Below are positions 13,862-55,040 of a stretch of 64,000 nt of DNA, piece by piece. This DNA is from an uncultured virus (IMG/VR IMGVR_UViG_3300013845_000001) (taxonomy: Duplodnaviria > Heunggongvirae > Uroviricota > Caudoviricetes). A program made the translations under genes and the position numbers. The notes under the pieces were generated by a model. It had not been told where the DNA came from and made no database searches. It saw nothing but the letters and a program-made list of their open reading frames with translations. Positions within the stretch are counted from its first letter, which is position 1; each line of letters starts with the position of its first letter. Where the stretch lies: IMG/VR virus record IMGVR_UViG_3300013845_000001, positions 62,001 through 126,000 of that record, one strand, 5' to 3'.

Positions 13862-13934
13862 TGACTAATAGCTCAGTTGGTAGAGCGCCTGTCTGTTAAA
13901 CAGGATGTCGTAGGTTCAAGCCCTACTTAGTCAG
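13862..13934 (+). tRNA. tRNA-Asn (GTT), CCA not encoded
   Basis: Acceptor TGACTAA/TTAGTCA; D-arm GCTC/GAGC; anticodon arm CCTGT-CTGTTAA-ACAGG; T-loop GGTTCAAGCC. Confidence 0.93.
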
Positions 13935-14173: not shown

Positions 14174-15625
14174 GTGGTTAGTACCATCGCTGCAAAAGCA
14201 AAATTAAAAGAAGACGGAATTATGTTTTGTGGGGCAAATGCCACTGATGTTACAGGTTCTATGATTTTTATTAAATTTGGAGAAAAACGGATTTTGTTAG
14301 AGTGTGGACTGTATCAGGACAATTCATATCTCGAAGCTTACAAGGTAAACTCTGAAAAGTTCAAATTTAAACCCAGCGAAATTGATTACGTATTTGTAGG
14401 TCATACTCATGTGGATCACATTGGGTTGATTCCCAGACTGGTTAAGGAAGGGTTTACTGGAAAGATCATTATGACTCTTCCATCTTCTATTATATCCAAG
14501 CATTTATTATTGAACTGTGCATTTATCTTATCTGATGAAGCCAGGGTATTATCTAAACGATATGATAGAGATTATCAGCCAATTTACACCGATGAAGATG
14601 TGAAGAACACCTTACAATATATCTGGGTTTATAATGACTATGATAAAATTTACCAATTAGATGACGCAGTGAGTTTTCAGTGGTTGAAAAATTCTCACTG
14701 TGTGGGAGCTGCACAGCTTCAACTCATTTTAAATGATGGAATTAAAAAGAAGAAAATTTTCTATACCTCTGACATCGGAGCATTAGAAGCGAAAAATCAT
14801 TATGTAGAAAATACAGAAATCCCATCCTTTTTCAACGATATCCTTGTCCTAGAGTCAACATATGGACTTAATACAAGGACTCCAAAGAAGACCAGAGAAT
14901 TTGAAGTTGAACATCTTAGAGTGGCTATAGAGACGGTTTTAGAGCGCCAGGGAACACTTGTGCTACCGGCTTTTAGTTTCAGTCGTTCACAAGAATTACT
15001 TACGGTTTTATACGAATTGTTTGGACAAGATGAGAATTTTAAGGCACAAGTAGTCGTAGATTCTCTTTTGACTTGTGATATATGCGATACATATGGTGAA
15101 GTTTTAACAGGGGAATTTTTTGATAAATGGAATAAAGTATATAACTGGAAAAATGTAAGATATGTGCGAGAAAAGGTTGATTCGCAGGCTTGTGTGGCTG
15201 ATACCACTCCTAAAATTGTGATTTCGTCAAGCGGATTTTGTACGAACGGTAGGATCTTAACTTATTTGGATAAATATCTTCGTGATTTCAATTCTATGAT
15301 AATCTTTTCTGGATATGTAGGAACAGATGAAAGCTACCTCTCCTATCGAATCAAAAATGGCAAAACTCATAAGACAATTAATATCAATAAAAAGCCAGTT
15401 CTAAATCGGGCAGATTGTATTACAATGAGTACCTTTAGTTCCCACGCCAATTTCGATGATTTATTGAAATACGGGAGTAAGCTCAGAACTAATCAGCTAG
15501 TTTTAGTTCATGGATCAGAAGAATCAAAGAATTGTTTAAAACACCATTTAAAAGAAGAGATATCCAAAAATAACAATACCTATAAGGTAACATGTTCTAA
15601 GAAAGATATGATTATCCCGTTATAG
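14174..15625 (+). CDS. Metallo-beta-lactamase/beta-CASP ribonuclease (CPSF73/YSH1-like)
   Basis: VTGS, HTHVDH, SHCVG, SDIG, ESTYG, FSSHA and LVHG motifs. Confidence 0.9.
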   Translation: MVSTIAAKAKLKEDGIMFCGANATDVTGSMIFIKFGEKRILLECGLYQDNSYLEAYKVNSEKFKFKPSEIDYVFVGHTHVDHIGLIPRLVKEGFTGKIIMTLPSSIISKHLLLNCAFILSDEARVLSKRYDRDYQPIYTDEDVKNTLQYIWVYNDYDKIYQLDDAVSFQWLKNSHCVGAAQLQLILNDGIKKKKIFYTSDIGALEAKNHYVENTEIPSFFNDILVLESTYGLNTRTPKKTREFEVEHLRVAIETVLERQGTLVLPAFSFSRSQELLTVLYELFGQDENFKAQVVVDSLLTCDICDTYGEVLTGEFFDKWNKVYNWKNVRYVREKVDSQACVADTTPKIVISSSGFCTNGRILTYLDKYLRDFNSMIIFSGYVGTDESYLSYRIKNGKTHKTININKKPVLNRADCITMSTFSSHANFDDLLKYGSKLRTNQLVLVHGSEESKNCLKHHLKEEISKNNNTYKVTCSKKDMIIPL

Positions 15626-22049: not shown

Positions 22050-22089
22050 TTATCACCCACTTCTTTTTATTATGAAAGGGAGTGATAAT

Positions 22090-23130
22090 TTGGCAAAAGA
22101 AAAAATTACTAAAGTCAGATATTTTACAAAAGATAAAGAAAGATACATCAATCAAGATAATTGGAATAAATACAAGAAATATTTGCAGTCAAATATTATT
22201 AAAAATCAGGACGTTAAAGATACGACTTATAAGAGATATGAGGGGTTATTTAGACATTTTCTCATGTGGCTCGGAGAATTTTATGGGGATATTGGTTTGT
22301 ATTCAGATGATTTTATGGATAATGCAGTGGACATAATGGAATCATATATGCTCTTTTGTCAAGAAACGCTTCTTAATCGTAAGAAAATTATAAACATGAA
22401 AGTATCAACCGTTAGTTCATTTTATATCTGGTCTATGAAACGAGGATTTGTAAAGTTTCATCCATTTGATGGGAAACTAGACAGAATGAAAAAGGCAAAT
22501 GAGGAACAAGTGTTAAATCATTATTTCTTATCAGAAGAACAAATTGCAGAAATCAGAAAAGATTTATATAAAACGGAAAACAATAAATGGACAATACAAG
22601 ATCAATTATTATTTGAGATTTCTCTTTTCTCTGCAAATAGACTTGGTGCTTTAGAAAAACTTACAATTTCTTCTTTAAACCTTGATGAAATGGTATTTGA
22701 GGGAATTAGGGAGAAAGAAGGTTATAGAGTTGAAGTTTCTATAGATGAAACATGTAAAGATATGATTGAGACATGGTTATCAATGCGAAAAGATGACTTT
22801 GATTTCTTAGAGTGCGATGCTTTATTTGTACATAAATATCAAGATAAATGGATTCCGTGGTCTGGTGGTATGATATACGACAGAATGGTTAAATTCGGTA
22901 AAATAATTGGGATTCCTGATTTTCACACGCATTGTATGAGGAAGACGGCAATTAATAATATTTACGAAGAAACGGGCGATTTAAATTTAGCGGCACAGTG
23001 GGCAAATCACAAAAGTTCGGCGGTAACTCAGCAAAGTTACATTCGTCCTGCTTCAAAGAGTGATTTAAGAGAAAAGCTCAAACTTCTTAAAGCAAAGCAA
23101 AAGGAAATTATTGATAAAATGGATTCTTAA
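22090..23130 (+). CDS. Tyrosine recombinase (XerC/D-like)
   Basis: Catalytic R (ANRLG), K (REK), HxxR (HCMR), H (ANHKS), Y (QSY). Confidence 0.9.
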   Translation: MAKEKITKVRYFTKDKERYINQDNWNKYKKYLQSNIIKNQDVKDTTYKRYEGLFRHFLMWLGEFYGDIGLYSDDFMDNAVDIMESYMLFCQETLLNRKKIINMKVSTVSSFYIWSMKRGFVKFHPFDGKLDRMKKANEEQVLNHYFLSEEQIAEIRKDLYKTENNKWTIQDQLLFEISLFSANRLGALEKLTISSLNLDEMVFEGIREKEGYRVEVSIDETCKDMIETWLSMRKDDFDFLECDALFVHKYQDKWIPWSGGMIYDRMVKFGKIIGIPDFHTHCMRKTAINNIYEETGDLNLAAQWANHKSSAVTQQSYIRPASKSDLREKLKLLKAKQKEIIDKMDS

Positions 23131-23189: not shown

Positions 23190-23880
23190 GAACCAAGCCA
23201 GCCGTTCTATATGGCAGATTAAATCAAAATGGGACATCTACCTTGAGATTGAAGAAAGTTGGAGAAGATACAAGTTCAGAAGAGAATCTTAGTCTTGTAT
23301 TTAATGCCTTGGGATAGCAGGAGCCTGTAAGAAGCTATCGGGATTCCATAAGATATATGGCTTTTTGGTGAAGTAATATATTATGTGAATAAAGCTTTCT
23401 TAGATGATACGTCAAAGAGAGTATTTGAGAAAGAAACCATTCACATTATTGGTTCTGGTGTCGCATTTTATCCAGATTAAATGTAGTAGATGCCTTCGGG
23501 AGCGCAAAGCAGCCAATAATATCTTGTCAGCCGAAAGGTGAGACATTAGCAATAATTAAATAACTGAGTTATTAAATCGTCCGGTTGAGATAACATACCA
23601 CGGCTGTAATTGGCGGTCGGAATTCCAAGGCGTGTACTTTGTGCATAGGACGTTAAAGAAAATGAGTGAGTAGTTTTGCACTACAAAAACGAGATTGAAA
23701 TACTCTCGGCTCACGGTGAAGTCCTTGGTAGAATAAGATGGGAAACACTAATCCCCTTGCATGTAAACGTGTTTTAAACACGATGGTGAAATATAGCACA
23801 GCGTAAAGGCGTGTGGTGAGCTGCATGTGAAGTCAATTATGCAAAATTAATGTTAAGGCGAAAGGCCGATTTGAATAATA
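23190..23880 (+). ncRNA. Large structured ncRNA, ROOL/GOLLD-type candidate (ends approximate)
   Basis: About 700 nt without a credible ORF; 12-bp long-range helix 23304-23315/23622-23633; many stems with UUCG and GNRA loops. Confidence 0.65.
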
Positions 23881-23927
23881 AGAAGAGCATACTACTCTCC
23901 TATCTCACCGAAAGGAGTGAAATAAAC

Positions 23928-25700
23928 ATGAACATTAATCAAAATACAAATTTCGGGACACATAACACATCTATACGTCCCGGTAAAATAGAATATGTAG
24001 TTATACATTACGTTGGTGCCACTGGCGATGCTAAAGCAAACGTAAACTACTATAATCAGCCAACCACTACTAATGCGTCAGCTGATTTTTTTGTGGGGTT
24101 TGCCGGCGATATTTGGCAGTATAATCCCGATCCTGAAAAGAGATATTGTTGGGCGGTCGGCGGTTCAAAATTATCTACGGGTGGCGGCTCATTATACGGA
24201 ATTGCCAAAAATGTAAATTGCGTTAGCATCGAAATGTGTGTAAGGAATAATGGAAGCAAAGCAGATACAAGTAAAGATTGGTATTTTGAGGACGCTACTG
24301 TTAATTCTGCCATTGAACTTACTAAGTATTTAATGAAATTATATGAAATCCCAGCTAATCACGTAATACGTCATTATGATGTTACTGGAAAAAATTGCTT
24401 ACCATTATGTACAGAATTATATACACCAGAGGGCTGGAAGCAGTTAAAGGATATAGAAGTTGGTAATTCAGTTTTACAATACATACCAGAGTTAAATATT
24501 TGTGAATTTACATCGGTTTTAAATAAAGTGCCTCCATACAAGACGAGAACATATAAAACATCAGATTTTGAAGCAACCTCTGACCATAGAGCCATTTACT
24601 GGACGGAACGAAGGACTAAAGCCGAAGAATTTCTTGTATCAAAATGGATAGATATATTTAATGGAACGACAACAAAAAAAATAAAAAGCGAATGGAAATC
24701 GAATAATAGAGACCTCAATTTATCGGACGATGAGTTGAGGTTTTTAATTTGGATTCAGGCAGACGGTCATTATGAAAATGAGTATGGAATTACTTTTCAT
24801 TTTAAAAAAGAACGAAAAATAAAAACTGTTTGTGAATTACTTGAAAGATTGGGTTATCGTTATAAAGCATATAACAATTCTGACGGTACAGTTAAAATAA
24901 ATGTCAACAATGAAATTTTAAATATTTATGAGCCTGAATTTTTAAATAATAAGAGTTTTTCTTTATCTTTAATAAATATGTCTGACAGACAATTTCTAGT
25001 ATTTAAAAACGAGATTACAAAGGCAGACGGTCACACCAAAAACGACTGCGGATACTACTATTCAATGAACAAAGAGAACGCAGATATAGTTCAAATGATT
25101 TTTTCTTCTCATGGTTGTAGATGTAACATTCGAAAAGACAATCACGGATTATATTGGGTCAGTTTTCTCAACTCTACGAGAGGCGTAACCTCAAACATGG
25201 AGAGAAGTGTAAAAAAAGATGTATCCGTAAGTTGTGTTAGTGTCAAGAGTGGCTTTATTGCAGTAAGACAAGATGGAGTTATAACTATTACCGGCAATTG
25301 TCCGAATCCATATGTCTACAATCATACTGACCATACCTGGGAGGAATTTAAAACTGCTTTAGTAGCAGAACCAGTAAAGAAATCGGGTTGGATACAGGAA
25401 GTAGGCGGCTGGAGATTTTATCTCGGTAATATTGGACAGCCAATCCAGAATAATTGGTTATTTGATAATGATAAATGGTATTGGTTTAATGGCGCTGGAA
25501 TTATGGTGACAAATACATGGTATCAGTATAACCAAGCGTGGTATTATCTAGGGCCTGACGGCGCCATGTGTACATCTCAGTTAGTAGCAAACTCCGGAAA
25601 GATTTATGCTGTAGATGCTGATGGTAAGATGGTGACGGGTGAAATATTACTATCAACGTTAAGTGACGGAGCCTTGATTTATAAGGGATTAGTAAAGTAA
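23928..25700 (+). CDS. Endolysin: Amidase_2 N-acetylmuramoyl-L-alanine amidase with cell-wall-binding repeats, intein-containing
   Basis: VVIHY, SIEMC, VIRHYDVTGKN|CP; C-terminal WYWF/WYYL repeats; AAAGGAG SD before ATG 23928. Confidence 0.9.
   Translation: MNINQNTNFGTHNTSIRPGKIEYVVIHYVGATGDAKANVNYYNQPTTTNASADFFVGFAGDIWQYNPDPEKRYCWAVGGSKLSTGGGSLYGIAKNVNCVSIEMCVRNNGSKADTSKDWYFEDATVNSAIELTKYLMKLYEIPANHVIRHYDVTGKNCLPLCTELYTPEGWKQLKDIEVGNSVLQYIPELNICEFTSVLNKVPPYKTRTYKTSDFEATSDHRAIYWTERRTKAEEFLVSKWIDIFNGTTTKKIKSEWKSNNRDLNLSDDELRFLIWIQADGHYENEYGITFHFKKERKIKTVCELLERLGYRYKAYNNSDGTVKINVNNEILNIYEPEFLNNKSFSLSLINMSDRQFLVFKNEITKADGHTKNDCGYYYSMNKENADIVQMIFSSHGCRCNIRKDNHGLYWVSFLNSTRGVTSNMERSVKKDVSVSCVSVKSGFIAVRQDGVITITGNCPNPYVYNHTDHTWEEFKTALVAEPVKKSGWIQEVGGWRFYLGNIGQPIQNNWLFDNDKWYWFNGAGIMVTNTWYQYNQAWYYLGPDGAMCTSQLVANSGKIYAVDADGKMVTGEILLSTLSDGALIYKGLVK
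24396..25298 (+). mobile_element. Intein with LAGLIDADG homing endonuclease (301 aa)
   Basis: Block A CLPLCTELYTPEGWK; block B ATSDH; WIQADG and TKADG; block F/G VSCVSVKSG..ITGN followed by Cys+1. Confidence 0.92.
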
Positions 25701-32459: not shown

Positions 32460-32480
32460 CGAAAGGTGGTGATAGACAAA

Positions 32481-33947
32481 ATGGATATTAAAAAACTAGA
32501 CAATTATTCTGTTCCTGTTATGTTCCAAAAACTAAATGAGATGGATACATCTGATGGGAGATTTACTAAAGTAAGAATCTGGATGATGCATCTACAAGAT
32601 AATTATAACGGATCAATTTTTGAACGCCCCGTCGTTGACAACGCAATCCCATCAATTGAGTACATCCCGATCGTCGGTTTTATAGAGAAAAATTCTTTGG
32701 GTGAAGATGACTTTAGTGATCACAGATACATAATCACGAAAAAAGATGGAAACGTTGAAAAAAAATATGCCGGTTCAGCGTATGGCGTCATATTAAGTTC
32801 CGAAGATAATAACGCACATTATGAAGATAGACTATGTGACGATGGCATAACGCGTACATTTTTAGTCGTAGATGGAATTATTTGGAACATGTTTGATAAA
32901 AGTTCAGAAATTATCAATAGGGATTTGGTTAAATCTCATTCAATGGAATTATGGGATTCTATTGAAGGGTGGGAAGACGAAAATAATCTATTCCACTTTA
33001 CCAAGTTTTCATTTAGAGCAGCTTGTATATTGGGCAATGACCAAGAACCAGGTATGCACAATTCCACAATTGAAGTCCAGTTTACAATGAGTGATTTTGT
33101 AAAAAGCATTCAAAGTGAATTGTCAAATAAATTAAAGACTTACACAGATTATGTTAAACAAAACAATAATAAAGGAGGTACACAAATGGCAAAACCAGAA
33201 GAAACAAAAACTGATTTCTCTTTAACTGCAATGCAACAGTTTAGTGAAATAGATAATATAGTTTCTGCACATGAACAGTATCGAGATCGTTGGGGCGACT
33301 TAAGGGTAAGATATTCTGCTGTAGACTTACAGAATGATGAAGTAATTTGTATTGATAGGGCAGAAAATTATACTTATTTCGGCTTCAAATTTGCAATGAA
33401 TGGAGATAAGCCGACTGTAGATTTTGCAACTAAAACAAGAAAGAAAATTGAATACACAAATTTTGAAGAAGGCACTCAGGTAATTGAAAGTGCTTTTTCT
33501 TTTGCAAATGAAGTGGAAGATTTCTGTAAAACCGCTGATAAAAAGATTGGTGAGTTGACAACCGAGAAAGAAACCGCCGAAACAAACTACTCTTCTATTA
33601 AATCAGAGTATGACGAAATCAAACCGAAATATGAAGATTTTGTTAAAGAAAAAGCTGAAAATGAAAAGAAAGCTGTTGAACTTAAAAAAGATGAGTGTTT
33701 TGCGAAATTTGATGAACATTTAAGTACAGTAGATGAATATACCGCACTTAAAAATGAGAAAGATAATTTATCTTTGGATCAGATTGAGGCAAAATGTGCA
33801 ATTTTATTTACACAAAAATCTTTAAGTACAAATTTTACAAAGAAACAGAAAAACAATGACACTTTAACCGCTGATATTGTTGATTATTCATCTAATGATG
33901 AGGGAGTCGTTCAGACAAAATATGGCGCAATTAAAGTAAGCAAATAA
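32481..33947 (+). CDS. Prohead protease/scaffold (YonD-like)
   Basis: HSMEL, ACILG..EPGM; C-terminal coiled coil; position. Confidence 0.75.
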   Translation: MDIKKLDNYSVPVMFQKLNEMDTSDGRFTKVRIWMMHLQDNYNGSIFERPVVDNAIPSIEYIPIVGFIEKNSLGEDDFSDHRYIITKKDGNVEKKYAGSAYGVILSSEDNNAHYEDRLCDDGITRTFLVVDGIIWNMFDKSSEIINRDLVKSHSMELWDSIEGWEDENNLFHFTKFSFRAACILGNDQEPGMHNSTIEVQFTMSDFVKSIQSELSNKLKTYTDYVKQNNNKGGTQMAKPEETKTDFSLTAMQQFSEIDNIVSAHEQYRDRWGDLRVRYSAVDLQNDEVICIDRAENYTYFGFKFAMNGDKPTVDFATKTRKKIEYTNFEEGTQVIESAFSFANEVEDFCKTADKKIGELTTEKETAETNYSSIKSEYDEIKPKYEDFVKEKAENEKKAVELKKDECFAKFDEHLSTVDEYTALKNEKDNLSLDQIEAKCAILFTQKSLSTNFTKKQKNNDTLTADIVDYSSNDEGVVQTKYGAIKVSK

Positions 33948-44296: not shown

Positions 44297-44503
44297 ATGA
44301 TTAATTATATTAAATCAAAGTTATTCTTTGCGAAACTTAAGATGGAGTTATATAAAGCGTTATCTCACAGCGAAGATTATTTAGAGATGTTCACAAAGTT
44401 GGCTGTTGCTTCTAAGGATATGACACCCGAAGAAGTAAAAAGTGAATTTCTTAAGGAGTTTGCTGGTGTCGTCCATGATTATGTACATAGAGATGATAAG
44501 TAA
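44297..44503 (+). CDS. Hypothetical protein
   Basis: GGAGG SD. Confidence 0.7.
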   Translation: MINYIKSKLFFAKLKMELYKALSHSEDYLEMFTKLAVASKDMTPEEVKSEFLKEFAGVVHDYVHRDDK

Positions 44504-44943
44504 TGGCTAGAACTTTTAAATCTTTTATTGAAATGGAAAACTTTATTGACTCAGCATGTGAAAATGCCGTAAAGAAAACTTGCAATAGATTACTTGGGAC
44601 TTTGCAAGAATTAATTATGTCAGAATACTATGATGCGTATGAACCCAAACAGTACCAAAGAACTATGCAGTTCTATGAATCAGCAATGACAGAAATGCTT
44701 ACTAGTACTTGTGGACAGATCTTTATGAATCCAGACAAGATGGATTATCCTTTTAGCGGAAGGGGTTGGTCATGGGACGGCGCTACTCAGATATCCGCTG
44801 CTAATGAAGGAATTCATGGTGGCTGGACAACTAAAGAGTCAGTACAACATAGATACTGGGATGAATTTGAAAGTTATTGTGATAACAACGCTCTGAAAAT
44901 TCTCAAAGAGGAACTTAAAAGGGCGGGCGTAGATACAAAATAA
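44503..44943 (+). CDS. Virion morphogenesis protein (HK97 gp10-like neck protein)
   Basis: YYDAYEPKQYQRT motif; directly before the tape measure gene. Confidence 0.6.
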   Translation: MARTFKSFIEMENFIDSACENAVKKTCNRLLGTLQELIMSEYYDAYEPKQYQRTMQFYESAMTEMLTSTCGQIFMNPDKMDYPFSGRGWSWDGATQISAANEGIHGGWTTKESVQHRYWDEFESYCDNNALKILKEELKRAGVDTK

Positions 44944-45041
44944 AATCTCCACCATATTATAGTCAACATTTATTTATTAACCCACTCTCCTTTCACACAA
45001 GGGGAGTTTTTTATTGTGTAAATTTTTGAGAGGAGAATTAT

Positions 45042-46595
45042 ATGGCTGATTTTAGAACTCTCGTAGAACTTATATTTGATAAAGCAAAAGCGAGAAATGA
45101 ATTAAATAGCATTTTAAAGGAATTACAAAAAGACGCCAATTTAAAAACGGAAATAAAAGTCGGTACTTCTGAGGCAAAAAAGGATTTAAATGAAACCGCT
45201 TCAGCAATTGGGAAGATTGTAACTGAATCTAGGCAGTTGTCAAAAGTTAATACAATTAAGACATGGGCTGACAACAACACTAAAGCCATGAAGATGTTTG
45301 GTGATCAGATTCAGGACATCATCACCAAAATGGGAAAGGCTAATCTTTCGCTGTCTGATTTTAAAGGTCTAGATGCCGATTTTAATAGGATTAAAATAGC
45401 GTCCAGAGATATGAATTTACTTGGTAAGACCTGGGGTGATTCGTTTAAGGCAGACGCAAGCAAATTTGCTTCATGGTTGCTTCCTTCTGGCGGAATCATG
45501 ACTGCCATTAGTGGACTACGTAAAATGAAGGACTCTATCGTTGACATAGATACTGCTCTGACTAATCTCTATAAAGTATCCGATGAAACTGGTTCAAAAT
45601 ATAGACAGGTTCTTCAAAGTTCTAATGTGGAGGCTCAAAAACTTGGCAGAACTGTATCCAGTCTTATTGAACAAACTGCAACATGGAAAAAGCTTGGTTT
45701 TACTATAGATGAATCTTCTGAACTTTCAAAAGTATCTTCTATTTATGCTAACGTAGGCGAAGTATCAGATGACGTTGCTGTTTCTGATTTAGTAACCGCA
45801 ATGAAAGCCTTTAACATTGCTGGCTCAGACAGTATAACAATTGTAGATTCGCTTAACAAGCTAGGTAATGAGTTTGCTACTGATTCCGCTTCGTTAGGTG
45901 AAGGTCTTAAAAATTCTGCATCTTCTCTACGTCTTGCTGGAAATGATATTAATCAAACTCTTGCAATGCTAACAGGTGGTACAGAAATTATTCAAAACGC
46001 AGGAGAAATGGGTAATGCTCTGAAAATACTAAGTATGAGAATACGAGGTATGAAGGGCGAGCTAGAAGCACTCGGAGAAGAATATGACAATGTGGAGTCA
46101 ATATCAAAAATACAAACCCAGATCTTGAATCGTACTGGCGGTACAGTAAATATATTTGACAATAATGGAAACTTCAAATCTACATATGAAATACTAAAGG
46201 GAATATCGGAAGTATGGGATAAAATTTCTCAAACCGACCAGGCTGACCTTTTAGAAGTTATCGCAGGCAAACAACGCGGCAACAGTGCTGCAGCTTTAAT
46301 TCAATCATTCCAATCTGGTCAAGTACAAAAGGCTCTTGAAGCTTCAACAAAATCCGCAGGATCGGCATATGAAGAACAAGAAAAATGGATGGAATCAATT
46401 GAGGCGAAGACCAAACAGTACGAAGCCTCGTTCCAGTCACTATCACAAACTATTATTAATTCAAATTTCTTAAAGTTTCTTATAGATTCTGGTACGACAT
46501 TTAATAATGTATTAGATAAGACAATAAACGGCTTTGGTGTTTTGTCTACTACGCTTTCCGGTGCTGGTATAGCGGCATTCATTAAAAACTACGGT
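45042..46595 (+). CDS. Tail tape measure protein, exon 1 (TP901-type core)
   Basis: IDTALTNLYKV, LNKLGNEFA, GNALKILSMRIRG, AGKQRGN; ends ..KNYG with the stop supplied by the first intron codon. Confidence 0.92.
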
Positions 46596-47112
46596 TAACT
46601 CTGTAATAAGAGTTACGCTTAAATTTCCGAGGGATTTAAGTTGGCCTATCATGGGGAAGAATATATCATAATGGCGATATAAACAATTCCATGGGACGAA
46701 AGTTTTAAAATAAAAAGAGGATTAATTGCTTGAAAGTGTAATGCTCACTACTCTTCTATTTTAGAAGAAACCGAAAAATAAGGTAAATAAGTCAAACGGT
46801 TTACACACCGGAGTGAGATTTCTAGGGATAAAAAATAATTCCCGACAGATGTACAATCACCAACGAAGCAGCTAGCCCTATCTGTGTATCACGATGTATA
46901 ATCCGATGGTAACAATTGCGCAAGCAATGTCGGGATAAGATCATTAATGATAGGGAGTGTTCAGAGAGCACCACTCCTCACAGTACATGAAAGCCATATT
47001 TCATTGTGCTGTTAACGCATGTTCCAAAGTGTACACGATATCAACGCTTCACGAGGCGCTGGATATTATAATGTTGTAAAAGATATGGGCTACAGCCTAT
47101 CATTGAGCGTAA
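46596..47112 (+). ncRNA. Group I ribozyme core
   Basis: P AAUUGCUUGAAA (46724-46735); Q CGAAGCAGC (46864-46872); R GUUCAGAGAGCA (46959-46970); S AACGCAUGUUCC (47014-47025); P3 GAGGA/UCCUC; P6a CCCUAUC/GAUAGGG; P8 46980-47012. Confidence 0.85.
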
Positions 47113-47285
47113 TATGGAAAAGTTAATCGTTTCTATGTTATGTATCAAAATAGTTATGTAGATTCTCCCATATTTTTAAATAAAGTATTTATTCGCCTTT
47201 TTATATGATTGAATACTAATATAATGTACCATCCTATATATTGTTTGAATATAATACAATAAATCAAATGGAGATGTATAGAAAT

Positions 47286-47444
47286 ATGACGAAAAAAATT
47301 ATTAATTTGACCGAAGAAGGCGAAGCTCTAGGATATCCAAAAACTCCAGATTCTGAGATGATAGAGATGGGTATATTTGATGGAAAGATAATCAATTTTA
47401 TAAAAGTAATGTTTATAAAGATAGTTAAAATGATGAAAAGGTAG
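47286..47444 (+). CDS. Small hypothetical protein (intron cargo)
   Basis: GGAG SD, TATAAT upstream, hydrophobic/basic C-terminus, followed by a hairpin. Confidence 0.5.
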   Translation: MTKKIINLTEEGEALGYPKTPDSEMIEMGIFDGKIINFIKVMFIKIVKMMKR

Positions 47445-47457
47445 TCAATAGACTACC

Positions 47458-47619
47458 TTATTCCTCGTTCTTTTTATTTTTGTCGTTATCATTAACATGT
47501 TTAATTTCTGAGAACATCTCTACCACATATTCTGGTCTAGGCGTACTTGGATACTGTTCTCCTTTTTCATTGGTGTTATTAGTACTTGTCATCTTGATAA
47601 CATTTTCATCGTCTGACAT
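47458..47619 (-). CDS. 53-aa hydrophilic protein (intron cargo)
   Basis: GGAGGAG SD, overlaps the end of the membrane-protein gene. Confidence 0.6.
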   Translation of the reverse strand: MSDDENVIKMTSTNNTNEKGEQYPSTPRPEYVVEMFSEIKHVNDNDKNKKNEE

Positions 47620-48187
47620 TTATTTCTCCTCCTTCTATATGAATATTTTGTATATTATTATTATTTATAAATTTGGTCTCATAGTAATCAATACCGACAC
47701 CGAATGTATACGATAAAATAGATACTGCGAAAGTGATGCATATGAAATAACTCAACGATTTATGTTTCATGTTCTTTGTAATGTTCACATTTCTATTATG
47801 AATGGCTTCATTAATAAAACATTCACAGAGCATATTATTTACATGTATATCTGCTTTTTTAATATGCTTTTTATCTGTCATTTGATATGTTTGTGAGATC
47901 GCAACAGCCATATCTTTAATTGGGAAATAACTCATTTTATAGCCAGAGTATGCTTTATAAAACTTGTGCAAGCAAATTATAAATAAAATCGTTGACAAAG
48001 CGCAAAATATCAAGTAAACAATAGTACACCATGATAAAGAAAAACGAACAAATTGTGACCAAAGTAATATTTGTGCACTACCAAGTATTGTAAGAAACGT
48101 AATACAAGTATTAATTTTATTACTTAATCTATCGGAATATTCTATCTCCTTATAATATAAGTCTTTGTATTCTTCAAGCAATTCCAT
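47606..48187 (-). CDS. Three-TM membrane protein (intron cargo)
   Basis: Three hydrophobic helices; AAGGAG SD; topology reminiscent of Pycsar-effector/SLATT-like proteins. Confidence 0.8.
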   Translation of the reverse strand: MELLEEYKDLYYKEIEYSDRLSNKINTCITFLTILGSAQILLWSQFVRFSLSWCTIVYLIFCALSTILFIICLHKFYKAYSGYKMSYFPIKDMAVAISQTYQMTDKKHIKKADIHVNNMLCECFINEAIHNRNVNITKNMKHKSLSYFICITFAVSILSYTFGVGIDYYETKFINNNNIQNIHIEGGEINVRR

Positions 48188-48473
48188 ATGATGATGTTCT
48201 CCTTTGTATCATATGGAATATTTTACCATCGTCAATACAATAAAACAAGAAACAGATGTTTGTCGATGAGGATATAAAATCGACATATTTCGACATTTAT
48301 AATATTGAGTTAGTCATTAAGCTGTATATTAAAATAACATAAGCTGAACCCCTCTTTTATACTACAATCTTGCGTCTTACTAGCTTCATTGTTTTCAAAA
48401 TTTTTATACCTATCTGGAAATTTCTTCCACTCCATGATATAATAATTTTTAAAAGAGATACAGGAGGGATTGT

Positions 48474-49565
48474 ATGAAAAGGTTATTATCAATTGTATTA
48501 GTTTTTATTTTCTCTATTAGTTTACTCATGACGTCTTCTGCCGAAGAATATATGGGAGCATGGGTCACAGATGATATTGGAACTTGGTATCGATATAATG
48601 ATGGAACATATCCTTCTTCCTGTTTTATAAAGAAAGATAGAAAACTTTATTATATTAATCAAGATGGGTATGTAGCCCCTAATGTATCACTGTTTGGAGG
48701 ATATCAAACAGATTCTCAAGGAACAGTTATAGGATATACTACTAAAAATAATGTCTATTCTTTATTGCATACGTCTGATGGTTGGAGACAAGATGCAAAT
48801 GGTTGGTGGTATCAATACCCAGACGGTTCTTACCCTAAAAATACTGATATTACTGTAAATGGTAAACTTTATTGGTTAGGAATTGACGGATATATGTTGC
48901 ATGATTGTTATGCAAGAAATCATGGTTATTATGGAAGCGATGGCTCTTATGCTAATAAACTTGATAAAAATGCAAAGATTACTATACAGCAACCAGCATC
49001 AGATACAAGAAGCGATGGAGCCGGGGTTGAAAATACATCGAATGAAGCTTTTCTTAATCTAGTCCATCCAGTCGATATAATAGGTGGCGGCTTTGTTGAA
49101 AATTATGTGGGTGGAATAAGTCCTAGCGTCGCTTTTAGAAACAACTCGGGTAAAGATATAAAATATGTAACCCTTGAAATGACACCTTATAACAGAGTTG
49201 GAGATCCTGTGAATTGTACAATCCGAAACTATTCAACAACAACATGTAGAGCCACGGGTCCATACGCTCCTGATATGGGTGTTGGACAAGGAGCATATTC
49301 AATTACTTCTGGACTGGTACCAATATTTGATCATGATACAGATCACCCTTATTATTATACATCACGCACTTTCGAAAAGAGGGAATTAGAAAAGGCAGCA
49401 TATGCAAAGACATTTAATAACATGCCAGGTTGGGAAAATGTTTGGTATAATAGCAATATATATAAAATAAAAATCACAAAAGCTATTATTGATTATATGG
49501 ATGGTACAAGTGACACAATATCCTCTTTAGATATTACAATGTTCCACGACGATTCCCTCAATTAA
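48474..49565 (+). CDS. Secreted cell-wall-binding repeat protein (intron cargo)
   Basis: Signal peptide MKRLLSIVLV..SSA; GWRQDANGWWYQYPDGSYP-type repeats. Confidence 0.88.
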   Translation: MKRLLSIVLVFIFSISLLMTSSAEEYMGAWVTDDIGTWYRYNDGTYPSSCFIKKDRKLYYINQDGYVAPNVSLFGGYQTDSQGTVIGYTTKNNVYSLLHTSDGWRQDANGWWYQYPDGSYPKNTDITVNGKLYWLGIDGYMLHDCYARNHGYYGSDGSYANKLDKNAKITIQQPASDTRSDGAGVENTSNEAFLNLVHPVDIIGGGFVENYVGGISPSVAFRNNSGKDIKYVTLEMTPYNRVGDPVNCTIRNYSTTTCRATGPYAPDMGVGQGAYSITSGLVPIFDHDTDHPYYYTSRTFEKRELEKAAYAKTFNNMPGWENVWYNSNIYKIKITKAIIDYMDGTSDTISSLDITMFHDDSLN

Positions 49566-49596
49566 ACAAACAGTTAATTGATATAATATGAAATTC

Positions 49597-49630
49597 AAAA
49601 GACCTTTATCAACAAAGGTCTTTTTTCTTT
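49597..49630. terminator. Bidirectional intrinsic terminator inside the intron
   Basis: AAAAGACCTTT-ATCAAC-AAAGGTCTTTT followed by T-run, between convergent genes. Confidence 0.85.
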
Positions 49631-50036
49631 AAAATTTACTCCCACAATTATTGCATTTCCAAGTCTTACCGTTATCTCCCATGCCGAAAATTCCAAATGC
49701 AGCTATCTTTGCGACCTTTTTTGTTGCGGATATTTTAGAGAGGTTTGTGCTGCTACATGTGGGGCATTTTGGAATATTATTTTCTACCTGTTTTTGCGCC
49801 GCCCACATAGCCTCTTGCTCAGGAGTAGCTAAACCTACTGTTCTATTGCACTGAGGACAGATATATTCATTATTTTTTATTGAATAATTCATCTTGATCT
49901 TATTAGGCAACCCAAAATTACAATAAGGGCATTCTACTGTATTTTTTATTAGATCAAGATTAAAGCCACAATGTGGGCATGATTTTGCACTATCGCTAAT
50001 ATTATTATCGCATTCTGGACATTTAATTAAAGCCAT
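49629..50036 (-). CDS. Multi zinc-ribbon protein (intron cargo)
   Basis: MALIKCPEC..CPHCG, CPYC, CPQC, PKCPTCSS..WKCNNCG. Confidence 0.88.
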   Translation of the reverse strand: MALIKCPECDNNISDSAKSCPHCGFNLDLIKNTVECPYCNFGLPNKIKMNYSIKNNEYICPQCNRTVGLATPEQEAMWAAQKQVENNIPKCPTCSSTNLSKISATKKVAKIAAFGIFGMGDNGKTWKCNNCGSKF

Positions 50037-50067
50037 AAATATATTCCCCCACTTATTATTTATGCAT

Positions 50068-50096
50068 ATTATACTTCTATTTATTGTTTAATGCAA
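50068..50096 (-). promoter_or_regulatory. Sigma-A promoter for the zinc-ribbon gene, overlapping the 3' splice site
   Basis: TTGCAT (50096-50091)-17-TATAAT (50073-50068). Confidence 0.65.
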
Positions 50097-53000
50097 CTTA
50101 AAGACCTCGGAAATCTTTCAAACGTTTTAAAGAATATAAATAGTAGTAACAATATAGCTGACAGTTTTAATGCTCTTGAAGTAAGTATGCAAAAGTGTGT
50201 GCTCGCCAGCGGAAAGTTAAGTGTTGCACAACTGGATGCAATAAATTCAGGTACCATATGGAAAACCAACATTGATGGTACTATGGTTTCTGTATCAGGT
50301 CTTTCTAAGACTGAATTAGAAGCAGCAATTTCCACTACCACTCTCTCCGCTTCACAGACCACTGCAACAGCAACTACAACTGGATTCGGTACTGCCCTTA
50401 AAGGTCTTTGGGCAACCATGATGGCAAATCCTTTAATTGCAATAGGAATGGCCGTAACAGCTATCTCAACAGCATGGAATATTTATAATCAGTCCATCGA
50501 AAAAACAAGACAAGCTTCAGCTGATGCGGCGGGCGCATTAAACGAAACCACCTCATCAATTAATGATTATGCTGAAAAGTATAAAAAATTACACGATGAA
50601 CTTGTCAAGGCAAACACTACCGAAGAACGACAGCATGAAATAAAAAGTGATCTTCTTGCGCTCCAACAAGAATTAAACGATAAGTACGGAGATGAGTACG
50701 GAAAATTAAATCTTGTTACAGATGCTTATAATGATCAGACCGATGCAATCTTGGCAAGAAATAAAGCCGCTGCACAAAATTACCTTCTTGAAAATAGAAA
50801 AGGTATAGCTGATGCGACTAAGCAAATGGAACAAGACCGTACCTATACGCTTGGCAGCACTGGTAATTTATCAAACGACTATGCAAAAGAAATATATAGT
50901 ATAGCTTCAAAATACTCTAACCAGGGTATAAAACTAGAGTCTCTTAAAAATAACGGAGTAGATGCCTATACCATCAAGTTTTTTGGAAATGCCGAAAATG
51001 CAGAAAAAGTCATACGTAATCTCTCCAATGAGATTCAAGATCTTGGAAATAAATATGAAGACAACAACTTCATCAATGGGTTCTTAGATAACTCAACAAA
51101 TGCACTTAAAGAGAACCAAAAAATATTAGATAAATACGATGAAATATATAACTCCGCATTGATGTCTCAAATTGCCACTGATAACGAACTATCAGAAGGT
51201 TATAATAAGGCTACAAATGCCGTTAAAGCATATAACGATGCACTAATTTCTGGTGACGAATCTAAAATATTATCGGCAAGAGATGATCTTAGGGAAGTAA
51301 AAAATTCCATTGATTTAACAAGCGATAACTGGAAACGATATGGAAATGTAATGACTGATATTTTCGATCAGGCTAATACTGGACTATACGATTTTAGAGA
51401 TGCGCTCTCTTCAAATAACGATAATATCAAAGATTATGCTAAAAATCTAAAAGGTTTATCAAAAACAGATGTATTATCCATGGCAAATGATGGAAAAGAT
51501 GATAGTTTTGATAAAATTGTTGAATCTGCCAATAAATATGGATTAAGTATTAACCAGGTCATTGATGAATTGGTCAGATTGAAATTTGTTCAAGATGATG
51601 TAGCAAAATCTGGTGAAGTAGCATTCACTCCTCTCTCCAAGCAAGAAGTAATTTCAAACATCAACTCTCTATCTGAAGGTTTTGAATCTTTAGATAAAAT
51701 TATGAAGAGTATATCCGACAAAGATAATCCGTTTGACTATGCTCTACTAGATGACAAAAAGTTCAAAGATAATTTTAAAGACTTGGGAGAATCATATACC
51801 GATTTCGTTGAAAAAGTATCTTCTTCACCAAAAGATATTAATATCACAAAATCTGCATTCAATGATCTCGTAACTACATGGATTGATAGTTCTGGTGTAT
51901 TAAATGGACTTACAGACGAAAACGCCAATCTTGCTACTGCTATGCTTCAGAACATGGGTGTTGCTAATGCGGAAGAAGTTGTAATGTCTCGATTAGCAAT
52001 TGCACAGGAGCATTTAGCTGCTGAAAAAGCTTATACGGCAGAAGTAAGTAATGACCTCGCAAATGCTACCGCCAGTGAGATTCCAGGAATCATAGATGAG
52101 GCAACTCAAAGTGATATCGCTAAGGTTGCGCTTGCCGGGCTGGTATTAGAGAAGGAATTTTTCAATGGAAATGCACTTGATACTAGTGGAGATATTCAAA
52201 ATATCATCTCTCTTATCGGGGTCATCGGTACTGCCAATACAGCACTCAAAGCGTTAAATACCTTGAAAGCCGGTGGAAATGTAGGAGGCAATATTGGGGG
52301 AAAAGAAGGCTATGATGCTCTTGTAAGAAACGCACAACAGGAAGTAGATGAAGCAATAAAGGCTGCTTCTGAGTATAAGGGCAAGGGTTCAAGTGTCAAC
52401 GCATCGTATACAGGTGGTACAAAAACAAACAAGCCCTCTTCTGGTTCTAAAAAAGATAAAAAAGACACCGAGAAACCTATTGACTGGATTGAGCGACAGC
52501 TAAAATTGCTTAAAGATAAAAGGTCAGAACTGGTCAGTAAAATTTCTGACACCTATTCTGCATTTTCCACAGCTACGCATGATCAAATTCTGGAGCTGGA
52601 CAAAACACTCATTGACGAATATGCAAACGCAGTTAATCAGTATCAGCAGGAATATGATAAAGCTGTTAGTAAAATATCGGCTCAAAACAAAGCAAAAATA
52701 GAAAATGGGTCTATGTCTGTAGACACTCTTTCTGGTACTGAATTAGAAAATGTGCAATCAGCAATGGACGCTTATGATAAACTCGCTGGTACACAGAAGG
52801 AACAATCTGAAGCACAAAAAACGCATCTAGATGATATAAAGTCTAAATATGATGCTATTTCAAAATCTATTGAGAATGAAAACAATAAATTAAAAGATTC
52901 TAATTCTATACTAGAAAGCCAGATGGAATATTACAAGTCATCTGGTATTGTTATCGACTCTTCATTTTACGACAGGCTTATTCGGAATACGTCAGGATTA

Positions 53001-55040
53001 ATTTCTAATGCCAGAGATACAATTAGTAATAAACGAGCGGAATTAAGGGATCTGCTTGCTAATGGAGCAGACAAGTCCTCACAAGAGTATATTGATCTGA
53101 AAAGTGAAATTGCTGATGCAGAGAATAATGTATATGCTCTAAAAAAGGCGCAGGAAGAATACAGTAACCAACTACTCCAAATGCCAATAGACCACCTCTC
53201 CACATTAGTTTCGATGTATCAGGATATTGGAACCGCTATTTCGGATTGGGGAGCCGAGGTTGAGGCCTCTGGAAAGAAATTGGACGCAGGATATTACCAG
53301 CGTTTAATATCTAATAGTGCAAAAGTCGTAGATAATTTGAAAGAACAAGCATCATTAATTGAAGATACCATGTCTGAATATGAAGTGGGAAGTGACCGCT
53401 ACCTTGAACTCTATAATCAGTTACGGTCTGTTAACTCTGAAATGTCTACCACCGTCCAGAACATGCGTAAGCTAAATGAAGAGATGTTGAAACTTCCGCT
53501 TGAAAATATCGGTAGTTTTTCAACAGAGTTGCAGAAAGTAGCAGATGCATTAAGCAAGGTGCAAGAAGAACAGGATTTAGTTATCTCGGCAGTCACGAAC
53601 GCTATTCAGAAACAGATTGATGTTATTAACGACCAGAAAAACGCATACCAGGAAGCTAACGAATCACAGAAGAAGGGTTTAAAGGATAAACTTGACTTAC
53701 TTCAAAAGCAGAATACCCAATTAAAGCGACAGACCGACTATGAACAGTCTTTATATGATCTTCAAAAAGTGAACCAGCAAGCCACCGAGGCTGTAATTCG
53801 TGATGGAGAAAAAGTTTATGAGGTAAACGCAGATAAGCAAAGAGAAGCTCTCGAAAAAGTTCAAGATGCAAAATTCGCTCTCGAAACCGGAAAGATTCAA
53901 GATGAAATTGACGCACTCGATGAAGCGCTTGAAAAACAGAATGAATTATATGATTCACAGATAAAGAATCTTGAAACTATTGCAGATCGATGGAAACAAA
54001 TTGCAGAGAACATCAAAATTGCACAGGACGAAGCAAAGGCCGATGATATTCTAGGCGCCGGCTGGAAAGACAAGATACTCTCTGGTAATGACACTGCCCT
54101 ATTTAATACATTCTCAGGAATGTACGCAAACACCGCTGAACAGCTCAAAAAGTATCAAGATCAAATAGACTCCACAAATAATATTCAGTCATTGTTAGAG
54201 GATTACATTGCTTCATATAAGGAAGGAACAATCACTTACGATGAAGCCGTAAAAGGTATCAATAATCTCCTATCTCAGCTCAATCAGAAAATGTCTGCCA
54301 CAGATAATTTGAAGAATATCTTTGATTATTTAGGTACCGTAAATGACACGGCTGCTAACGCAGATGCGATTCTGACGGGTATCCAAAGTGGATTGAAAGA
54401 TACTGCCACTGAGTTACTAAAGTCCTTAGAACAGTACAATAAGAATGCTGGAATGATATCTGAATATACGTCTAGTTGGCAGAAACTTACCGACAACGTG
54501 TCTTCAATGCTTGAAGTGCTAAAAGAAGTCAGAAACAATTTAGAAGATAGTTATGATTATGAGCGAGATCGTGACAATGATAATACTAGATATGGAGGAG
54601 GAAAAGACGGAAGTCCCGGAACTCCCGGAAAGGGCGACTACGTAAATAGTGGCCCTGGTGTATATGCTGATGGCATCAAAAATGGACTTGTTGGGAAATC
54701 TACAGATTCTGAGCGAGAAAAGATGCTCAAACATCTTGCTACAAATAATTTGAAGCCGGGAGAAGTTCCAATACTTGCTCATGAGGGAGAGGCTATCTTT
54801 AATGATGAACAACAGAATAATCTTCTAAAGAACTTGGCGTCTGCTAATAGTTTTAAGCCTAATATTCCTGATTATGGCAGTTTTCTAAATCAAATTACAG
54901 TAAGAGAATCGACTCCAAAGCAAGAGTTTAATTTTGGGGATATCAACATTCAGAAATGTGATGCTCCAGATCAATTAGCACAAGGAATATTAGATGGTAA
55001 ACTTGCATTGGCATTAGGACAAAGACTCGGAAAAAGATAA
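50094..55040 (+). CDS. Tail tape measure protein, exon 2
   Basis: ALKGLWATMMANP, long helical region, IDWIER, EVPILAHEGEAIFN; no SD before ATG 50091. Confidence 0.9.
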   Translation, partial: QLKDLGNLSNVLKNINSSNNIADSFNALEVSMQKCVLASGKLSVAQLDAINSGTIWKTNIDGTMVSVSGLSKTELEAAISTTTLSASQTTATATTTGFGTALKGLWATMMANPLIAIGMAVTAISTAWNIYNQSIEKTRQASADAAGALNETTSSINDYAEKYKKLHDELVKANTTEERQHEIKSDLLALQQELNDKYGDEYGKLNLVTDAYNDQTDAILARNKAAAQNYLLENRKGIADATKQMEQDRTYTLGSTGNLSNDYAKEIYSIASKYSNQGIKLESLKNNGVDAYTIKFFGNAENAEKVIRNLSNEIQDLGNKYEDNNFINGFLDNSTNALKENQKILDKYDEIYNSALMSQIATDNELSEGYNKATNAVKAYNDALISGDESKILSARDDLREVKNSIDLTSDNWKRYGNVMTDIFDQANTGLYDFRDALSSNNDNIKDYAKNLKGLSKTDVLSMANDGKDDSFDKIVESANKYGLSINQVIDELVRLKFVQDDVAKSGEVAFTPLSKQEVISNINSLSEGFESLDKIMKSISDKDNPFDYALLDDKKFKDNFKDLGESYTDFVEKVSSSPKDINITKSAFNDLVTTWIDSSGVLNGLTDENANLATAMLQNMGVANAEEVVMSRLAIAQEHLAAEKAYTAEVSNDLANATASEIPGIIDEATQSDIAKVALAGLVLEKEFFNGNALDTSGDIQNIISLIGVIGTANTALKALNTLKAGGNVGGNIGGKEGYDALVRNAQQEVDEAIKAASEYKGKGSSVNASYTGGTKTNKPSSGSKKDKKDTEKPIDWIERQLKLLKDKRSELVSKISDTYSAFSTATHDQILELDKTLIDEYANAVNQYQQEYDKAVSKISAQNKAKIENGSMSVDTLSGTELENVQSAMDAYDKLAGTQKEQSEAQKTHLDDIKSKYDAISKSIENENNKLKDSNSILESQMEYYKSSGIVIDSSFYDRLIRNTSGLISNARDTISNKRAELRDLLANGADKSSQEYIDLKSEIADAENNVYALKKAQEEYSNQLLQMPIDHLSTLVSMYQDIGTAISDWGAEVEASGKKLDAGYYQRLISNSAKVVDNLKEQASLIEDTMSEYEVGSDRYLELYNQLRSVNSEMSTTVQNMRKLNEEMLKLPLENIGSFSTELQKVADALSKVQEEQDLVISAVTNAIQKQIDVINDQKNAYQEANESQKKGLKDKLDLLQKQNTQLKRQTDYEQSLYDLQKVNQQATEAVIRDGEKVYEVNADKQREALEKVQDAKFALETGKIQDEIDALDEALEKQNELYDSQIKNLETIADRWKQIAENIKIAQDEAKADDILGAGWKDKILSGNDTALFNTFSGMYANTAEQLKKYQDQIDSTNNIQSLLEDYIASYKEGTITYDEAVKGINNLLSQLNQKMSATDNLKNIFDYLGTVNDTAANADAILTGIQSGLKDTATELLKSLEQYNKNAGMISEYTSSWQKLTDNVSSMLEVLKEVRNNLEDSYDYERDRDNDNTRYGGGKDGSPGTPGKGDYVNSGPGVYADGIKNGLVGKSTDSEREKMLKHLATNNLKPGEVPILAHEGEAIFNDEQQNNLLKNLASANSFKPNIPDYGSFLNQITVRESTPKQEFNFGDINIQKCDAPDQLAQGILDGKLALALGQRLGKR

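Follow-up and report, generated by a model that had tools for sequence, protein, structure and literature searches.

How might a phage make one tape-measure protein from a gene whose two halves lie 3,498 nt apart, with genes on both strands between them? The question is raised by a 64,000-nt stretch of an uncultured Caudoviricetes virus (hereafter the window), bases 62001-126000 of the 128,564-bp phage record IMGVR_UViG_3300013845_000001, which bears direct terminal repeats. The DNA at 46596-50093, which divides the tape-measure gene, is in our judgement probably a self-splicing intron of group I type, from an atypical lineage and equipped with a natural, extended guide for its 3' exon, a reading drawn from comparative sequence evidence. 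In SPbeta-sized phages of Lachnospiraceae it appears to occupy one fixed site of the tape-measure gene. The complete ribozyme is the first ~470 nt of the insert, and the stretch from helix P9 to the 3' splice site is interchangeable cargo.

The divided gene consists of three parts.
45042-46595, + strand: tape-measure exon 1 (518 codons), preceded by a Shine-Dalgarno sequence (SD) of its own and matching Pfam PhageMin_Tail and PHROG tape-measure families.
46596-50093, + strand: the whole insert, 3,498 nt, with an in-frame TAA at its start and G50093 at its end, its junction defined by the related phage contig L009.
50094-55040, + strand: exon 2, 1,648 codons plus stop, with weak matches to tape-measure PHROGs.

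Exon 1 ends in ...AAC TAC GGT at 46595, with TAA next in frame (open reading frame, ORF, 45042-46598), and the downstream ORF, 50091-55040, has its ATG at 50091-50093 and opens ATG CAA CTT. Exon 1 matches PhageMin_Tail at 9.4e-21 and PHROG tape-measure family 4211 at 8.5e-74. When both halves were compared by tblastn with related phage contigs, L009 was found to hold one open frame of ~2,230 codons that runs uninterrupted over the window's cut point. A Shine-Dalgarno sequence was sought upstream of exon 2 and none was found: the anti-SD duplex energy there is +1.6 kcal/mol, compared with -9.1 kcal/mol for exon 1 and a median of -7.6 kcal/mol for the 40 window ORFs of at least 150 aa. The nucleotide preceding exon 2 is G in all 19 junctions read (19 phages), a conserved feature of the 3' junction, and this terminal G is preceded by U in 17 of them; the U may reflect a P9.0-type contact or a back-up translation start. 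We take the halves to be one gene on four grounds: the matches of each half to tape-measure families, the uninterrupted frame of L009, the lack of an SD before exon 2 and the G at 19/19 junctions. A first-pass annotation of this DNA had already placed the end of exon 1 before the TAA and the ATG at 50091-50093, both of which are read directly from the letters, and its two further proposals, that the downstream ORF lacks an SD and that the two ORFs make one protein of 2,166 residues, are supported by these comparisons; the ORFs have 518 and 1,648 codons, 2,166 in all. For the first 500 residues encoded by exon 2, no counterpart turned up among the proteins of GenBank phages.

The start of exon 2 has a partner close to the start of the insert.
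46623-46643, + strand: extended guide, pairing with exon 2 nucleotides 1-21 (P10 core plus extension); 19 pairs, -28.6 kcal/mol.
50094-50114, + strand: first 21 nt of exon 2, to which the guide pairs, the other arm of the inverted repeat and the best site found by RNAduplex.

These segments form a 21-nt inverted repeat of 90% complementarity, the top pair of a repeat search within 44500-51500, and the guide adjoins, on their 5' side, the bases that pair with exon 1, which is the position expected of P10. When the guide was run in RNAduplex against 63,974 26-nt + strand windows, the best target was at 50090-50094 with -27.5 kcal/mol, against a background mean of -6.1 kcal/mol (standard deviation 2.5). 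The pairing of 19 pairs and a tandem mismatch with exon 2 nucleotides 1-21, as first proposed from the window's letters, is thereby confirmed as the best of all 63,974. Covariation between guide and exon 2 in homologues had been set beforehand as one of the tests that could refute the idea; it is present in L055 and L052, and lineages A and C, introduced below, have guides of their own.

In all 11 phages of the window's lineage, the phage's own guide pairs with its own exon at -21.5 to -29.8 kcal/mol. Hungatella hathewayi (L055) has joint changes at exon positions 15 and 18 and at their guide partners; the window's tandem mismatch is replaced by two pairs and two other positions are unpaired, the total being again 19/21. 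The H. hathewayi guide reaches -22.4 kcal/mol on its own exon and -8.6 to -9.8 kcal/mol on three other exon types, and other guides reach -6 to -9.7 kcal/mol on the H. hathewayi exon; an exception to this non-cognate weakness is the H. hathewayi guide of L039, which still attains -20.1 kcal/mol with the window-type exon. In L052 and L053 the guide makes 12 contiguous pairs, with position 21 altered on both sides, and G.U pairs are tolerated in the duplex (L055 position 12, L053 position 3). In 21/21 pairwise comparisons among 7 phages, exon 2 begins with the same 25 nt, while nucleotides 26-100 have a mean identity of 61%. Co-conversion does not explain these identical 25 nt, because the intron DNA just 5' of exon 2 is unrelated among the same phages.

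Pattern scans yielded three more divergent ribozyme lineages at the same gene position (A, B and C), in which the P10 core differs yet stays complementary. Lineage A (L061, L070, L072, L073) has 21-23 guide pairs in three blocks, as computed from coordinates; none of 9,918 other windows is as good for the L070 guide, and 7 of 9,429 are for that of L061. Lineage C (L071) has 18 guide pairs, with 8 of 9,920 windows elsewhere as good. Two candidates in lineage B (L066, L067, G364) were rejected: a 24-nt, 75% inverted repeat of L067 as guide, whose target falls outside the tape-measure frame and which had many equals among the repeats listed, and a splice site after CCU, where the frame conflicts and in place of which the homologous register was adopted.

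The guide is embedded in a longer conserved RNA, whose parts are given here with intron numbering in brackets (intron nucleotide 1 is 46596).
46596-47067, + strand: ribozyme module, P1 to P9; 86-93% identity in L003, L006 and L007, dropping beyond; homologues of 72-97% identity in Lachnospiraceae genomes.
46593-46600, + strand: P1 5' strand, the exon's last 3 bases and the intron's first 5 (exon -3 to -1 plus 1-5), with U46595 as the wobble U.
46639-46646, + strand: internal guide sequence (IGS), P1 3' strand (44-51), its five 5' bases common to P10.
46649-46694, + strand: P2 with an inner hairpin (54-61 with 92-99); two-sided changes in six pairs.
46717-46721, + strand: P3 5' strand, partner 46975-46979 (122-126 with 380-384); invariant and paired in 15/15 sequences.
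46726-46731, + strand: P4 5' strand, P-like element, partner 46866-46871, Q-like (131-136 with 271-276); two-sided changes in 4/6 pairs across lineages.
46876-46955, + strand: P6 and its extensions, including a GNRA-capped hairpin (P6 itself 281-287 with 354-360), from the comparative structure.
46966-46970, + strand: P7 5' strand, within the R-like element, partner 47020-47024 (371-375 with 425-429); paired in 15/15.
46980-47012, + strand: P8 hairpin of 13 pairs (385-417); two-sided changes in 10/13.
47013-47019, + strand: J8/7, 7 nt (418-424), near-invariant in the alignments.
Near intron nucleotides 443-470: P9.
46596-46615, + strand: local hairpin of the intron's first 7 nt, -6.6 kcal/mol, competing with P1.

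In the comparative model, built on 12 sequences, standard pairs occupy 96.8% of 1,182 cells, compared with 39.8-43.4% when the partners are slid by 1-3 columns, and 34/101 pairs show two-sided changes, compared with 3-9 when slid. Restricted to the core helices, for which 15 sequences from four lineages could be used, the corresponding values are 95.9% of cells against 40-50%, and 20/45 pairs against 3-9. In neither set did any of 500 shuffles attain the observed values. P4, P5, P6 and P8 covary. P1 is GGU/UAACU (the slash marks the splice site) with AGUUGGCC; it is kept in 11/11 sequences that span the region, with 98.9% of cells paired, and the U.G pair at the junction is present in 15/15, with a neighbouring exon -2/IGS pair that is C-G in 6, G-C in 6 and A-U in 3. 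The insert thus carries the features of a group I intron: the U.G of P1, a P10 pairing, a terminal G, and helices P3 to P9 with P4-P6 nested in a P3/P7 pseudoknot. Motifs resembling P, Q, R and S follow in canonical order, R agreeing with 9/12 positions of the RF00028 consensus line in an unscored comparison by eye. On both counts that the first-pass annotation had advanced for the ribozyme the comparative structure agrees with it, namely a P1 with U.G at the junction, retained in every sequence spanning the region, and a P3-P4-P6-P7-P8 core downstream, which Rfam misses. P7.1 and P7.2 are absent, just 4 nt separating the P7 5' strand from the P3 3' strand. Covariation of the P9.0 type, linking the nucleotides that follow P7 to those that precede the terminal G, was sought by eye and nothing consistent was found. 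We abandoned a placement of P7 on the 3' strand of P8, since covariation extends over P8 from end to end.

From this structure we infer catalysis, a sequence of conformational changes and cis splicing within a single transcript. The last three bases of exon 1 and the first five of the intron would pair with the internal guide sequence as P1, placing U46595.G46644 at the cleavage site, where an external guanosine would cut. The freed 5' end of the intron would then fold into its own hairpin (46596-46615) and release the guide bases that it had occupied. Exon 2 would by then already be tethered through the 16-nt extension (46623-46638 with 50099-50114), so that its first five bases could complete P10 and G50093 could be placed in the guanosine site. 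Ligation of exon 1 to C50094 would yield one tape-measure protein of 2,166 residues (...KNYG/QLKDLGN...). On this account the long guide would serve as a unique address for a splice site 1-11 kb away, past foreign genes. The proposed order comes from predicted alternative folds of the 5' region with and without the 3' junction RNA: folded alone (-15.8 kcal/mol), the guide pairs with a short copy of exon-2 sequence inside the intron and the first 7 nt form their hairpin, and when the 3' junction RNA is added the guide hairpin is predicted to open in favour of the exon-2 duplex (-37.3 kcal/mol). The placeholder hairpin at 46616-46643, in which the guide lies on the intron's copy of the exon-2 start, is also seen in H. 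hathewayi and in other lineages, with different letters.

The conserved part of the insert is its first ~472 nt (86-93% in L003, L006 and L007), after which the sequences diverge. Insert lengths are 950 nt in H. hathewayi (L055), 1,187 nt in G364, 1,796 nt in L006, 2,244 nt in L070, 2,945 nt in L071, 3,084 nt in L002, 3,498 nt in the window, 4,238 nt in L007, 4,416 nt in L003, 4,818 nt in L061 and, by arithmetic on contig coordinates, 11,474 nt in the contig of L008 and L023. In L002 the insert is 99.7% identical to that of the window over 1,889 nt. Pattern scans located prophage copies of the ribozyme in Lacrimispora sp. HJ-01 (97%), Clostridium sp. HBUAS56010 (85%), Lachnospiraceae bacterium 54-53 (83%) and H. 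hathewayi WAL-18680 (72%), and the module was present in 2 of the 401 Lachnospiraceae genomes searched; GenBank phages gave no DNA match to it. DNA contigs of 4 runs contain relatives with replaced cargo.

In the window, the cargo between the ribozyme and the 3' splice site comprises the following.
47606-48187, - strand: ORF of 193 aa, with no family matched in Pfam, PHROG or PADLOC.
48474-49565, + strand: ORF of 363 aa of secreted type, with its own SD and repeats that match the cell-wall-binding part of endolysin PHROGs.
49597-49624, + strand: terminator-like hairpin inside the insert, on the tape-measure gene's own strand.
49629-50036, - strand: zinc-ribbon ORF of 135 aa that abuts the 3' splice site, its C-terminal module recurring in relatives.

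Cargo genes lie on both strands and their content varies from phage to phage. Relatives carry an NYN nuclease, YbjQ, a PemK/MazF-like protein, a PBECR3 nuclease, a helix-turn-helix regulator, a Bro-N/KilAC antirepressor, an IS66 Orf2-like protein, tail-collar proteins and choline-binding repeats. No homing endonuclease (LAGLIDADG, GIY-YIG, HNH, PD-(D/E)xK or similar) was matched in the cargo by Pfam, PHROG or PADLOC, and no IS200/IS605 or IS607 transposase was matched by Pfam in the window's cargo or in 23 cargo ORFs of relatives; the sole transposon-related match is the IS66 Orf2-like protein, in L008. Nearly all relatives have an ORF of the opposite strand directly beside the 3' splice site, and copies of the zinc-ribbon ORF lie at L007:7479-7928, L008:7541-7954, L002:14287-14727 and L060:11028-11648. 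The common C-terminal module of these ORFs consists of CPxC, a hydrophobic stretch and CxxCG. Among the 12 ORFs aligned, that of L003 is without the module and that of L055 ends after the first CPxC; the near-invariant columns are C20, G24, C91, P92 and C94. This recurrent ORF could encode a protein that belongs to the intron itself. In the cargo of another relative, L007:4835-5021 contains two skipping-rope RNAs in tandem (RF02924; 77.2 and 59.8 bits), adjoining the PBECR3 nuclease ORF.

Several observations weigh against the reading of 46596-50093 as a group I-type intron with a long guide. Searches with the group I model RF00028 of Rfam gave no match, at gathering score or at E<=10, on the 64 kb of the window, on 4.1 kb or on 501 nt, nor in the whole 128.5-kb genome. 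The same model had matches in 8/14 control genomes and finds a canonical intron elsewhere in a relative's tape-measure gene (L002:9364-9754, 56.2 bits). Because RF00028 misses the window's intron yet finds that one, we regard the intron as an atypical member of the group; a match to the model is a detector of group I introns and not their definition. Rfam run at gathering score on the loci of eight relatives returned nothing relevant and missed the canonical L002 intron too; likewise unmatched was a 330-nt insert of L012, canonical in its appearance by eye. Within the fold, P3 is invariant and without covariation in the 15 sequences, and P7 offers a single compensatory change, in L028 (pair 421/477), which singles out the downstream partner over an identical upstream copy; the P3/P7 pseudoknot therefore rests mainly on conservation. 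The P7 5' strand lies inside the loop of a 3-bp helix (46957-46959 with 46972-46974), of which one pair covaries (G-C in 6, A-U in 6). The standard group I scheme contains no such helix, and this one may represent an alternative pairing without activity. In L023, P1 and the P10 core each contain an unpaired A-C. Lineage B is without a long stable extension although its inserts measure 1.2-3.9 kb: G364 and L067 have 7-8 contiguous P10 pairs, L067 with 12 predicted overall at -8.3 kcal/mol, and L066 has 6 contiguous pairs and 17 scattered predicted pairs at -7.0 kcal/mol. A long guide is therefore not strictly needed for a long insert; it is common among the lineages of this intron (three of four) and not universal. 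A single precursor, finally, would need read-through, because the + strand terminator-like hairpin and opposite-strand genes stand between the ribozyme and exon 2, and start codons at the 3' junction, discussed below, fit translation as well as splicing.

In a rival scheme the same ribozyme would work at least partly in trans, the exon 1 RNA ending at the cargo terminator, exon 2 being transcribed separately and the guide joining the two. The hairpin at 49597-49624 would suit such a scheme, as would a promoter-like site (50016-50045) a short way upstream of the 3' splice site, and the presence of cargo genes on both strands. The ribozyme is complete in the 5' piece, so that the splice acceptor alone would need recruiting, and the guide is predicted to form a duplex of -27 to -29 kcal/mol with the 3' junction RNA. 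Yet every part is colinear and in one orientation in all genomes seen, the promoter-like matches are only modestly enriched (45 found, 27.8 expected), and the AT-rich region upstream of the 3' splice site must also house the promoter of the divergent zinc-ribbon gene. Same-strand cargo in L008, where tail-collar proteins are encoded, suggests late transcription through the insert, and we consider splicing in trans unlikely. To about the same degree we doubt that splicing is dispensed with altogether, two separate polypeptides supplying the tape-measure function and the conserved RNA being a relic or a regulator. The in-frame stop after exon 1 and the negative RF00028 searches would agree with this, and ATG, TTG or GTG precedes exon 2 in 16/19 junctions. 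The remaining 3/19 have no start codon there, the triplets being TCG (L054), AAG (L066) and, in G364, TAG, an in-frame stop directly before exon 2; exon 2 of the window has no SD and none is visible at the other printed junctions. Nor would a relic retain 96% pairing with 34 covarying pairs, or a guide that covaries with exon 2.

Variable DNA flanked by an inverted repeat also calls to mind an event at the level of DNA, the arms being the ends of a transposon or of an invertible or excisable segment; if one enzyme read both arms, terminal inverted repeats would predict their covariation equally well. We find this scarcely credible. The right arm consists of host coding sequence with its homologue in the uninterrupted gene, and the left arm lies 27 nt inside the insert, abutting the P1 guide; inversion between the arms would leave the exons unjoined, and the arms tolerate G.U (L055 position 12, L053 position 3). 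Pfam and PHROG revealed no recombinase or transposase in the window's insert, and a joint of 46595 to 50094 is not among the 15 of 24 joints that were listed from the DNA contigs of the 4 runs. We return to the group I-type intron with its extended guide as the probable explanation.

If that is right, natural guides of 18-23 covarying pairs would show how a ribozyme picks a 3' splice site over 1-11 kb, and tools for RNA repair and circularisation would gain designs already tested by evolution. An entire lineage of such phage introns escapes the standard covariance models, and large phage tail genes are for that reason annotated as fragments. Because its cargo varies (MazF-like toxin, NYN nuclease, antirepressor, secreted wall-binding and tail-collar proteins), the intron is also a hot spot for accessory genes that had gone unrecognised. 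A bolder proposal, to which we give a rather low though not negligible probability, is that of a natural programmable RNA-joining device, in which a ribozyme attached to exon 1 finds exon 2 by a guide of ~20 nt and tolerates any intervening content, maybe even a separate transcript. Were it true, the tolerated content would include multi-kb gene islands, opposite-strand genes and terminators, and joining to exon 2 from a separate transcript would amount to group I trans-splicing in a bacterium or phage. The intron would then be a protected docking site for accessory genes within an essential gene, and cargo would be swapped between phages by way of conserved flanks, the ribozyme on one side and the 25-nt exon target on the other.

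Further features were recorded along the way. Exon 1 of relatives has additional inserts elsewhere, at L002:9364-11429, L006:1869-3456 and L012:1131-1460, and upstream of 9620 in L061, L070 and L072; the canonical intron of L002 is followed by a 478-aa ORF without a Pfam match. At L060:6354-11730 (G364), the end of exon 1, the ribozyme, the zinc-ribbon ORF and the 3' junction are duplicated 3.6 kb apart, and between the copies lies an IS3-type two-ORF element, read by eye from translations. The window itself has a + strand terminator-like hairpin at 44984-45007, just upstream of the tape-measure start, and a tRNA gene at 13862-13934 (RF00005, 72 bits). Long + strand ORFs at 9498-12242, 14174-15625, 22072-23130, 23850-25700 and 32466-33947 are without an SD at their mechanically chosen starts; these may be mis-set starts or further split genes.

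Group I introns are already on record from the tape-measure genes of Bacillus cereus-group prophages (TMP-IVS1, IVS2, IVS3a and IVS3b; Tourasse and Kolsto 2008, PMC2504315), so the novelty here, judged against that description, is the guide and the cargo. As described there, the TMP-IVS introns share with ours the same essential late gene, P1 and P10 pairings that adapt to the insertion site, and the use of several sites per gene. They are presented in PMC2504315 as IA1 and IA2 introns of ordinary size with a short P10 and at most one homing endonuclease gene. The window's intron, by comparison with that description, is missed by RF00028, is without P7.1 and P7.2, holds 1-11 kb of unrelated genes across its relatives and has a guide of 18-23 pairs in three of its four lineages. 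The canonical intron at L002:9364-9754 makes the same contrast within one phage group: it lies in the same gene and has the same P/Q/R/S order, and it scores 56.2 bits with RF00028, for which the window's intron yields nothing reportable.

The IStrons CdISt1 and BcISt1 (Tourasse et al. 2014, PMC4227781; PMC3984707) are, as portrayed in those papers, alike in having the whole ribozyme at the 5' end; most of the element follows P9, the 3' splice site lies kilobases off and the hosts are Clostridia (PMC4227781). In the same account IStrons are IA2 introns, found with RF00028 and carrying IS200/IS605 or IS607 genes. Set beside the IStrons so described, the window's insert has no such transposase, no P7.1 and no P7.2, its cargo differs in each phage, and it possesses a long guide for the 3' exon.

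Natural P10 is treated as a short pairing in a review (PMC3984707). Full-text literature searches found neither a natural extended P10 nor a report of this intron family. To our knowledge, long guides have so far been a trait of engineered ribozymes. Trans-splicing group I ribozymes of that kind (PMC6155759, PMC3895272) likewise use a guide extended far past the few base pairs found in nature to gain specificity for a distant or separate RNA. As described, they are designed molecules that extend the pairing with the 5'-exon substrate and carry their own 3' exon. The extension in the window's intron, unlike theirs, is natural, lies on the P10 side and would recruit the 3' exon.

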